DNA of 64,000 nucleotides from Escherichia coli O157:H7. GTDB taxonomy: Bacteria; Pseudomonadota; Gammaproteobacteria; Enterobacterales; Enterobacteriaceae. Made by a program: the position numbers. The DNA lies in assembly GCF_013167455.1 (NCBI RefSeq), contig NZ_CP038328.1, one strand, 5' to 3'. Positions 36,101 to 39,100 of the stretch are shown in pieces. The number at the start of each line of letters is the position of its first letter. The stretch's first letter is position 1.

Positions 36101-39100
36101 GATGCAGTATGTCAGTTACCAACGTTACAAGAAATACTAAAAAGGAATGAAATTATTTGAGTGGGATACCAGAAGATTATGTTATTTATTATTCAGTAAC
36201 TTTATCCACAATGATGTGCGTAATTAATTAGATTCATGTTATGTTTTTTAATTTATATCACACTCCCTTTCATTCAGCTTGTCTATTTCATTTCCTCTGA
36301 AAAGAAACTAACTATTCACATTGTGCAGATGTTTCACTTGTTATCACAGGTATTCTATAATCTCAAAATGTTTTTAATGATGGATATGCTCGGAGTTGGA
36401 GATGCAATTAATATTAATACAAATAAAAATATCCGGCAGGTATGCTAAAAGGATAAATGGCGTTCTCTGTATTTATTCGCAATTATCTGTAGGACAAATA
36501 TGGAGAGCTTGATGAGTCAGAGCTAAAACAGCAATTGATTAATAAACATGTTGATTTATTCAAGAAAATGGATGTATTTTAAATATTGATTCTTAATATA
36601 ACCTAATCAATAGATTATCACGTGAGAGCTGCACATTATTGGAGGGGCAGGGGAAAACACCATTTTGGGAACAATGAATCAGGTACTCTTACCACTGAAG
36701 CAAGATCATCCGGGCACCAGGTGGTGGTGCAGTGCTTTGGAAATGGTCCCCTCGGGGGAGTTGTCATTATTTTCTATGCTATTTGCTTATGATATTCATC
36801 AGGTGAATTTAATAAATTCCTAATTTGAAATATCCACTATTAAGCCAGTGTTTAACGACGTTAAGATGGCAATGTGCAGATCATGTTATCAGGGTGGGGC
36901 GGTAGCGTATATTCCTTATACAAATCATCATTCATTTCAATGATTGTTATTAAATTATTTATTGTTGTGAATAAAAAGACATTATGAATATTGGTTTGAC
37001 TTTGCATATCAGGTTTTTTATTACTCGCTGTAATGTACGAGCCTGTCGTGAATAACGTCGAGAACCCATCCGTTGCGTTTGTGATTATTTTGTTGACTAA
37101 ACAGACACCCGTTTCTCTGAAGTAAAATCCCAGACTAAATCATCACATAACCATGACATTTTTCTGATATTCCCCGGTAACGCCAGATGTCGACTCACTT
37201 ATTTCATCCGCCCGACATGTTGTACATGCAATATGTGCGGATTATTATTCATTTTCACGGAGGTTGCTATGTCAACCGGATTACGTTTCACGCTGGAAGT
37301 GGACGGCCTGCCACCGGACGCGTTTGCGGTGGTCTCCTTTCATCTGAACCAGTCACTCTCTTCACTTTTTTCCCTCGACCTTTCTCTGGTCAGTCAGCAG
37401 TTTCTTTCCCTTGAATTTGCGCAGGTGCTGGACAAAATGGCCTACCTGACGGTATGGCAGGGCGATGACGTACAGCGCCGGGTGAAAGGTGTGGTGACCT
37501 GGTTTGAACTGGGGGAGAACGACAAAAACCAGATGCTGTACAGCATGAAGGTGTGCCCGCCGCTGTGGCGCACAGGGCTGCGCCAGAACTTCCGTATCTT
37601 CCAGAATGAGGACATCGAAAGCATACTCGCTACGATCCTGAAAGAAAACGGTGTGACCGAGTGGAGTCCGCTGTTCAGCGAGCCGCATCCTTCCCGTGAG
37701 TTTTGTGTCCAGTACGGCGAAACTGATTACGATTTCCTGTGCCGGATGGCGGCGGAGGAAGGCATCTTCTTTTATGAGGAGCACGCGCAAAAAAGTATCG
37801 ACCAGAGCCTGGTCCTGTGCGACACCGTGCGTTATCTGCCGGAGTCCTTTGAGATCCCCTGGAACCCGAACACCCGTACCGAGGTGAGCACCCTATGCAT
37901 CAGCCAGTTCCGCTACAGCGCACAAATCCGCCCTTCTTCCGTGGTGACCAAGGACTACACCTTTAAACGACCCGGCTGGGCAGGGCGTTTTGATCAGGAA
38001 GGCCAGTACCAGGATTACCAGCGCACACAGTATGAAGTGTATGACTACCCCGGACGTTTCAAGGGTGCCCACGGGCAGAACTTTGCCCGCTGGCAGATGG
38101 ATGGCTGGCGCAACAACGCAGAAGTGGCGCGCGGAACAAGCCGTTCTCCGGAAATATGGCCGGGACGGCGAATTGTGCTGACGGGGCATCCGCAGGCGAA
38201 CCTGAACCGGGAATGGCAGGTGGTGGCAAGTGAACTGCACGGCGAGCAGCCACAGGCGGTGCCGGGACGCAGGGGTTCAGGTACCACGCTGAATAACCAC
38301 TTTGCGGTAATACCGGCAGACCGGACATGGCGACCACAGCCGTTGCTGAAACCGCTGGTGGATGGCCCGCAGAGCGCCGTCGTGACGGGACCGGCAGGCG
38401 AGGAAATCTTCTGCGACGAACATGGTCGCGTGCGGGTGAAATTTAACTGGGACCGCTATAACCCGTCAAACCAGGACAGTTCATGCTGGATCCGTGTGGC
38501 ACAGGCGTGGGCAGGCACCGGCTTTGGCAACCTGGCGATACCGCGTGTGGGTCAGGAGGTGATTGTGGACTTCCTCAACGGCGATCCGGACCAGCCGATT
38601 ATTATGGGGCGTACCTACCACCAGGAAAACCGCACACCCGGCAGCCTGCCGGGGACGAAGACGCAGATGACCATTCGTTCGAAAAACTATAAGGGCAGCG
38701 GGTTTAATGAACTGAAGTTTGACGATGCGACAGGGAAAGAACAGGTCTACATCCACGCGCAGAAGAACATGAACACCGAGGTGCTGAATAACCGCACCAC
38801 GGATGTGATAAACAACCATGCTGAGACCATTGGCAACAATCAGATGATTGCGGTTACCAACAATCAGATACAGACGGTGGGCGTTAACCAGATAGAGACG
38901 GTGGGCAGTAACCAGATCATTAACGTGGGTTCTGTTCAGGTGGAAACGATTGGACTTGTTCGTGCGCTGACCGTGGGCGTGGCGTACCAGACGACGGTAG
39001 GTGGCATTATGAACACTTCGGTGGCTCTGATGCAGTCCTCGCAGATCGGTTTGCATAAATCGTTGAGGGTCGGGCTGGGTTATGACGTCAAAGTCGGAAA

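Follow-up and report, generated by a model that had tools for sequence, protein, structure and literature searches.

The 820-bp spacer between yncH and vgrG2, a type VI secretion system (T6SS) gene of Escherichia coli O157:H7, was analyzed within a stretch of 64,000 nucleotides (nt) of one strand (RefSeq assembly GCF_013167455.1, contig NZ_CP038328.1), referred to here as the window. The spacer is a composite, of which ~345 bp go with yncH and the last 476 bp go with vgrG. It is probable, in our view, that this DNA is non-coding, that its vgrG-linked part forms a leader with a site for RNA polymerase, that it is coated by H-NS, that the vgrG2-rhsE module is silent, and that Fur is not involved. 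In the proposed course of events RNA polymerase would bind to the leader, as it does in vitro with K-12 DNA. H-NS would be drawn to this DNA by its AT-richness and foreign type and would cover the AT-rich stretch that reaches from yncH into the leader, as found for K-12 both in vitro and in vivo. This occupancy would keep vgrG2-rhsE transcriptionally silent under laboratory conditions, which is consistent with the near-zero RNA, and PhoB may touch a Pho-box-like site, such sites in H-NS regions being inert. Three parts of this scheme we infer: the transfer of K-12 behavior to O157, the silencing of vgrG2 by H-NS occupancy, and the choice of promoter. The spacer as a whole is ordinary and largely already known, and a constrained distal block in the leader is its sole loose end of possible interest.

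The region 36449–37268 is exactly the yncH–vgrG2 intergenic spacer, since yncH ends at 36448 and the annotated start of vgrG lies at 37269. The gene order in RefSeq is pqqU, yncE, ansP, yncG, yncH, T6SS VgrG and RHS core protein, followed by insertion sequence (IS) remnants, and many O157:H7 chromosomes are 100% identical to window positions 36100–37400. In the nomenclature of strain EDL933, this vgrG is vgrG2 (z2262) and the RHS gene after it is rhsE, while vgrG1 (z0707) lies beside cusS and vgrG3 (z0267) in the T6SS island (PMC7216683). The parts of the spacer and the genes that flank it are:

36236–36448, plus strand: yncH (RefSeq).
36449–36792: proximal part of the spacer, belonging with yncH and outside the vgrG module; missing from the vgrG1 (cusS) locus.
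36747–36759, plus strand: terminator-like hairpin TCCCCTCGGGGGA, GC-rich and followed by a T-rich tail (consensus scan).
36793–37268, plus strand: vgrG-linked leader of 476 bp, duplicated with the first ~1.5 kb of vgrG; it also precedes vgrG1 (z0707) next to cusS.
37269–39377, plus strand: vgrG2 (z2262), encoding the T6SS spike and preceded by the leader that serves it, with rhsE (RHS core gene) next (RefSeq).

The partition of the spacer comes from comparison of the two loci. In O157 the homology between vgrG2 and vgrG1 runs from ~36790 to ~38800. It spans the leader plus the initial ~1.5 kb of vgrG and stops where the C-termini of the VgrG proteins part. Since this homology begins only at ~36790, the first ~345 bp (36449–36792) belong with yncH; both this part and yncH are missing from certain ansP-locus haplotypes of other strains, and the part is present in K-12. 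The second copy of the leader lies between cusS and vgrG1, where homology is collinear from upstream non-coding DNA into vgrG, in the same genome and in other strains. Among 5426 complete E. coli genomes the leader is present in 3833, at a median of two places per genome. The preliminary description, which presented all 820 bp as a leader upstream of vgrG, is thus right for the 3′ 476 bp and has to be given up for the first ~345 bp, which go with yncH. Within this proximal part the GC content changes from 0.28 (36449–36600) to 0.46 (36601–36792). The hairpin at 36747–36759, which lies 300 nt past the yncH stop codon and just before the vgrG-linked part, is the sole terminator-like site in the consensus scan (1.8 expected by chance); as a putative terminator it could end the yncH-side transcript and insulate the leader.

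The vgrG1-eagR-rhsF island beside cusS (S-loop 44, z0707) has a leader that is a true paralog, with 83% identity over 36794–37268 that continues into vgrG. This leader shares the distal block, and in differential RNA sequencing (dRNA-seq) of strain Sakai the island's upstream start site is silent. The vgrG1 leader differs in its chromosomal site and in that both promoter spacings, a palindrome and a Pho box discussed below are not kept. The divergence of the two leaders was compared with that of 4-fold degenerate sites of vgrG1 and vgrG2, which are 78.4% identical; positions 36916–37268, with 80.1% identity and 26 gap columns, are indistinguishable from this neutral rate. The indels in the vgrG1 leader upset the spacing of two promoter-like sites, 36996–37024 and 37221–37248.

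The spacer was earlier described as AT-rich, gene-free and rich in A/T tracts typical of H-NS-bound DNA, and on these points the description holds. Its GC content is 0.37 (63% AT) against 0.50 for the window, a value within the bottom 6% for windows of 820 bp; tracts of at least six A/T bases number 29 per kb against 11 per kb (~2.6 times), and TpA steps 80 per kb against 49 per kb (1.6 times). The orthologous K-12 spacer, with 98.7% identity over spacer positions 1–753, was bound by H-NS in two kinds of experiment. Genomic SELEX (systematic evolution of ligands by exponential enrichment) placed an H-NS site in the K-12 spacer between yncH and rhsE (Shimada 2014), and the region of NC_000913.3 position 1527862, which maps to window positions 37152–37169, was flagged as H-NS-bound on the basis of the chromatin immunoprecipitation sequencing (ChIP-seq) data of Kahramanoglou (Fitzgerald/Wade 2023, PMC10294691). 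We infer that this binding carries over to the O157 spacer. The T6SS of enterohemorrhagic E. coli (EHEC) was reported to be repressed by H-NS, the mRNAs of its T6SS island going up in a Δhns mutant. The literature already contains both the binding of H-NS to this spacer and its repression of the EHEC T6SS. Silence of the module is supported by published RNA-seq, in which rhsE, yncH and the genes after yncH have very low RNA in MG1655, W3110 and W, and by the paralogous vgrG1-rhsF island, whose upstream start site is inactive, as noted above. The arrangement resembles xenogeneic silencing by H-NS at Rhs and T6SS loci in that AT-rich DNA precedes a mobile vgrG-rhs module, the orthologous K-12 spacer is bound by both H-NS and RNA polymerase, and the genes downstream are nearly silent. 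It differs in that none of its matches to the high-affinity nucleation motif is strong and in that its H-NS binding is known from K-12. In K-12 the leader is intact to window position ~37201 (~4905 in the K-12 locus, L002), and there it runs into the 3′ part of rhsE, one deletion having taken the last ~67 bp of the leader along with the whole of vgrG and, from the rhs core, its 5′ part.

Three features of the leader bear on its expression:

36996–37024, plus strand: sigma-70 promoter-like sequence TTGACT-17-TATTAC (RpoD-holoenzyme SELEX site in K-12).
37152–37169, minus strand: Pho-box-like sequence TATCAGAAAAATGTCATG, an exact match to the motif under a PhoB peak in K-12.
37259–37271, plus strand: Shine-Dalgarno sequence GGAGG (37259–37263) and the ATG of vgrG2 (37269–37271) (sequence and RefSeq start).

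The first of them was assigned by genomic SELEX with the RpoD holoenzyme, which gave TTGACT-17-TATTAC for the spacer between yncH and rhsE of K-12 (Shimada 2014); the only exact match to it in the window lies at 36996–37024. The leader probably holds at least one binding site for sigma-70 RNA polymerase, of which this is the best candidate, and transcription predicted from it would start at ~37031–37033 and give a 5′ untranslated region (UTR) of ~236 nt. No start-site coordinates matching the leader were found in the supplements of the Cappable-seq and PhoB papers, and a scan with the sigma-54 consensus found nothing with GG/GC elements in the leader. The Pho-box-like sequence lies under a weak PhoB ChIP-seq peak obtained in K-12 at low phosphate (center 1527862, ChIP score 1; PMC10294691, Table 1), and PhoB sites in H-NS regions were classed as transcriptionally inert by the authors of that study (PMC10294691). 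Regarding translation, the annotated ATG at 37269 is the likely start, because GGAGG precedes it and the stretch upstream is unconserved in vgrG1. An in-frame ATG is also present at 37233, 36 nt before the annotated vgrG start, and would give an open reading frame (ORF) of 714 amino acids (aa).

Several observations weigh against the interpretation of the spacer as an H-NS-silenced leader with its own promoter. The promoter assigned by SELEX is not kept in the vgrG1 leader, in which an 8-bp deletion abolishes its spacing, and sigma-70-like sites are not enriched in the consensus scan (4 found, 6.7 expected). Matches to the high-affinity H-NS motif TCGATAAATT are weak in the spacer: two score at least 8/10 (2.4 per kb compared with 1.4 per kb in the window) and none at least 9/10. 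The evidence for H-NS comes entirely from K-12, where vgrG is deleted, and H-NS might bind here simply because the DNA is AT-rich, with no selected regulatory function. Finally, in a 2026 study of EHEC neither VgrG1 nor RhsF was obtained after the promoter of vgrG1 had been replaced; its authors suspect post-transcriptional repression, which hints at control beyond transcriptional silencing.

Among the alternatives, the one that survives best concerns the distal end of the leader, where two features were recognized:

36794–36915: distal conserved block with above-neutral conservation; core at 36874–36910, GTGCAGATCATGTTATCAGGGTGGGGCGGTAGCGTAT.
36805–36819: palindrome GAATTTAATAAATTC within the block.

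Under this proposal control is in fact exerted through the block, which would serve as operator or promoter of an unnamed regulator; it would be common to orphan T6SS cargo islands and compatible with H-NS coating. We regard this as possible, with the balance of evidence tilted the other way. Its main support is conservation above the neutral level, both between paralogs and within alleles. The block is 90.2% identical between vgrG1 and vgrG2, with one gap (binomial p = 5e-4 against the 78% 4-fold rate), and differs in this respect from the rest of the leader at 80% (Fisher p = 0.011). In 42 distinct intact alleles from metagenomes, with the 21 block positions fixed by the search pattern left out, three segregating sites were found in 158 free positions of the block and 45 in 700 positions elsewhere (p = 0.02). 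However, gene conversion or recent recombination, and not selection, could yield high identity, and the polymorphism test is partly biased because those 21 positions were fixed.

The distribution of the block also speaks for a function, as it is kept upstream of differing cargoes at the ansP locus. Strains without yncH carry there a diverged copy (74–81%), which precedes an Rhs-tip/immunity pair and a different vgrG, or ISEc1 alone, and the 37-nt core was found upstream of a PAAR-vgrG-DUF2169 island. Some part of the query 36780–36960, within which the block lies, matches in 5265 of 5426 genomes (97%), and the 120 loci from the metagenome scan are all of E. coli-like types. A scan of GTDB with a 21-nt core returned only an Escherichia sp. 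and a contig of a metagenome-assembled genome (MAG) named ‘Citrobacter’. With 98.8% identity over 1.15 kb and 97% over another 0.3 kb, this contig corresponds to an E. coli locus; being E. coli-like over the whole 1.45 kb aligned (97–99%), it leaves the element apparently restricted to Escherichia.

As to what the block might do, a promoter-like sequence, TTATCA-16-TATATT (36886–36913), is kept in the vgrG1 and vgrG2 leaders, but it matches at just 9/12 positions, which is weak evidence, and promoter-like sites are not in excess in the region. The 11-mer GGCGGTAGCGT of the core (36898–36908) was found again in h3R, the hcp3-vgrG3 intergenic region of EHEC, 93 nt before the vgrG3 ATG (20975–20985 of locus L011); this recurrence is marginal, with p~0.03 by shuffles. 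No convincing match to the CRP, FNR, ARG-box, Lrp, IHF or PurR consensus was recognized in the block in an informal comparison by eye. A wider proposal is that the ~120-bp block is a selected cis-element, either promoter/operator or recombination anchor, which marks the upstream edge of interchangeable Escherichia T6SS cargo islands and through which some factor could switch on orphan vgrG-rhs modules together; this we hold to be speculative, at about one chance in a handful or slightly better.

The core of the block is also a place where mobile elements end. Ends of ISAs1-family elements (H-rpt repeats of Rhs elements) lie within 5–10 bp of it in three arrangements that involve two different ISs, at ~5030–5050 of locus L008, ~520–540 of L107 and ~5095–5105 of L007 (window ~36894–36920), and one of the arrangements resembles a 26-bp deletion between ATCAGGG repeats. 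The presence of IS ends beside the core suggests that it is an insertion hot spot, possibly through likeness to an IS end (CAGGG...), and recurrent breakpoints would be accounted for in this way.

The second alternative assumes that the leader acts after transcription has started: as a long 5′ UTR, it would keep vgrG2 from being translated or lead to premature termination, for example through CsrA, a small RNA or Rho, in the manner of h3R before vgrG3. We consider it unlikely, and the sequence lends it no support. h3R reportedly has its own promoter and limits vgrG expression, and an h3R reporter was unaffected by hns deletion (PMC13141884). Repression of vgrG3 expression by h3R, together with the lack of VgrG1 and RhsF after the vgrG1 promoter swap, favors such a mechanism. 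The Shine-Dalgarno region CACGGAGG includes a GGA, and a start anywhere at 36920–37033 would leave an untranslated AT-rich leader of 236–350 nt, although the existence of a long UTR is itself a prediction. Like h3R, the leader lies directly upstream of a vgrG, one that is at least 90% identical to vgrG3 of the same genome (PMC7216683). The two regions have in common the last ~11 nt, including the ribosome-binding site (BLAST), and the 11-mer of the block core; nothing else was found in common when the leader was compared with h3R or with the tssB-hcp3 promoter region. In contrast to the leader, h3R is 209 bp long, GC-richer, and starts with the hcp3 terminator. Folding z-scores against shuffles, calculated on both strands in 40 windows, ranged from −2.2 to +1.2 and gave no signal, and an Rfam scan of 35000–38000 at E<=1 returned no match. 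Between vgrG1 and vgrG2 the vgrG-proximal leader has accumulated many indels and diverged at the neutral rate. Because of the neutral divergence, the indels that break promoter spacing and the folding similar to that of shuffles, there is no sign of an elaborate conserved UTR. That vgrG1 and vgrG2 have a common 476-bp leader unrelated to h3R, and that within it constraint appears only in the distal ~120-bp block, could help efforts to activate the silent T6SS arsenal of EHEC.

An unannotated gene for a small protein or small RNA inside the spacer is very unlikely. Several ORFs of 30–56 aa are present, the terminator-like hairpin at 36747–36759 could belong to such a gene, and the block at 36794–36915 is conserved. 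Nevertheless, no feature is annotated under the spacer in any O157 or other E. coli RefSeq record listed, a Pfam scan of the ten ORFs of this size inside the spacer found no match, and the Rfam scan was empty as well. A ribosome profiling (RIBOseq) screen for small intergenic genes in Sakai listed yncH (ECs2059, 2042705–2042917) and nothing in 2042918–2043737, the equivalent of the spacer with the offset set by the Sakai yncH coordinates; since the locus is silent, negative expression data of this kind count weakly. The ORFs that cross the block are frame-shifted in the vgrG1 copy by a 1-nt insertion and a 4-nt deletion, as read by eye from the alignment, and the folding z-score of the block is +1.2. 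The earlier account of the spacer as gene-free is confirmed by these searches. A decayed hcp gene was also considered and rejected, the best tblastn hit of Hcp3 in the spacer having an E-value of only 1.5.

The last alternative is iron control, which the preliminary description had suggested from a palindrome said to be built from Fur-box-like hexamers:

36927–36944: reported palindrome ATCATTcatttcAATGAT (= ATCATTCATTTCAATGAT), a chance inverted repeat and not a Fur operator.

According to this proposal, Fur bound at 36927–36944 would repress vgrG2-rhsE in replete iron, like at the sci1 T6SS promoter of enteroaggregative E. coli (EAEC). The palindrome occurs once in the window, and its arms, ATCATT and AATGAT, are indeed sub-strings of the Fur consensus; moreover, pqqU/yncE, a pair truly regulated by Fur, is located 4 kb upstream. 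Nonetheless, the center of the consensus is AATGAT-A-ATCATT, and in the palindrome the two hexamers stand in reversed order, 6 nt apart. When the 19-bp Fur box GATAATGATAATCATTATC was used in a scan with 1000 dinucleotide shuffles as background, the 19-mer from 36927 matched at 9/19 positions and the best nearby register at 12/19 (36936). The best match in the spacer, 13/19, was matched by 45% of shuffles, and three sites of at least 12/19 were found with 2.8 expected, so that both the palindrome and the best sites stand at chance level. In all, the spacer contains seven perfect inverted repeats with 6-bp arms, the palindrome among them; shuffles give 2.8 ± 1.9. In the vgrG1 leader it is broken, with AATAAT as its right arm and a 4-nt deletion just upstream, and natural alleles segregate within it at 36927, 36929 and 36942.

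Published genome-wide data agree with the scan. The Fur ChIP-exo peaks of Sakai run from yncE (2038978) to adhP (2075121) with none in 2042918–2043737, and the Fur ChIP-exo lists of MG1655 and W3110 contain only yncD/yncE in this region. In the Δfur RNA-seq tables for MG1655, W3110 and W, taken from the published study that also gave ChIP-exo data, rhsE shows log2 fold changes of −0.09 (MG1655, p = 0.79) and −0.36 (W3110, p = 0.33). For strain W the values are −0.43 (p = 0.59) for the gene that follows yncH, which from its place would be the vgrG, and +0.41 (p = 0.24) for the Rhs gene, compared with +3.1, +8.1 and +5.3 for yncE in MG1655, W3110 and W, respectively. All genes downstream of the spacer are at very low expression in these tables. 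With no Fur peak over the spacer in Sakai, no response to Δfur downstream in three strains and an unconserved palindrome, the proposed iron-responsive control falls away: the palindrome is a chance inverted repeat, a part for Fur at the spacer is not supported, and we regard regulation by Fur here as most improbable. The sci1 promoter of enteroaggregative E. coli is reportedly under joint Fur/Dam control, as described by Brunet et al. in 2011. Both sequences are T6SS-related promoter regions of E. coli, and the block core also has a GATC site (36878–36881). They differ in that the spacer is without a Fur box, a ChIP-exo peak or a Δfur response, and the hexamers of its palindrome have the wrong order and spacing.

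The best Fur match of the whole window, AATAATGATTACCATTCCC (15/19), lies at 32498–32516 in the pqqU–yncE spacer and overlaps the published Fur ChIP-exo peak of O157 Sakai at 2038978–2038990 (yncE). Because the two coincide, the scan does detect a real Fur box, and this one is the real iron-responsive site of the neighborhood.

Lesions in other T6SS genes were noticed in the O157:H7 assembly NZ_AP018488.1. In its region 245000–294000 (locus L011) tssM, tssG and tssE are annotated as pseudogenes with a frameshift or an internal stop, and the Rhs gene after vgrG1 is frameshifted in the same assembly (L012, 21379–26237). These lesions reflect either decay of the T6SS in that strain or indel errors of the assembly.

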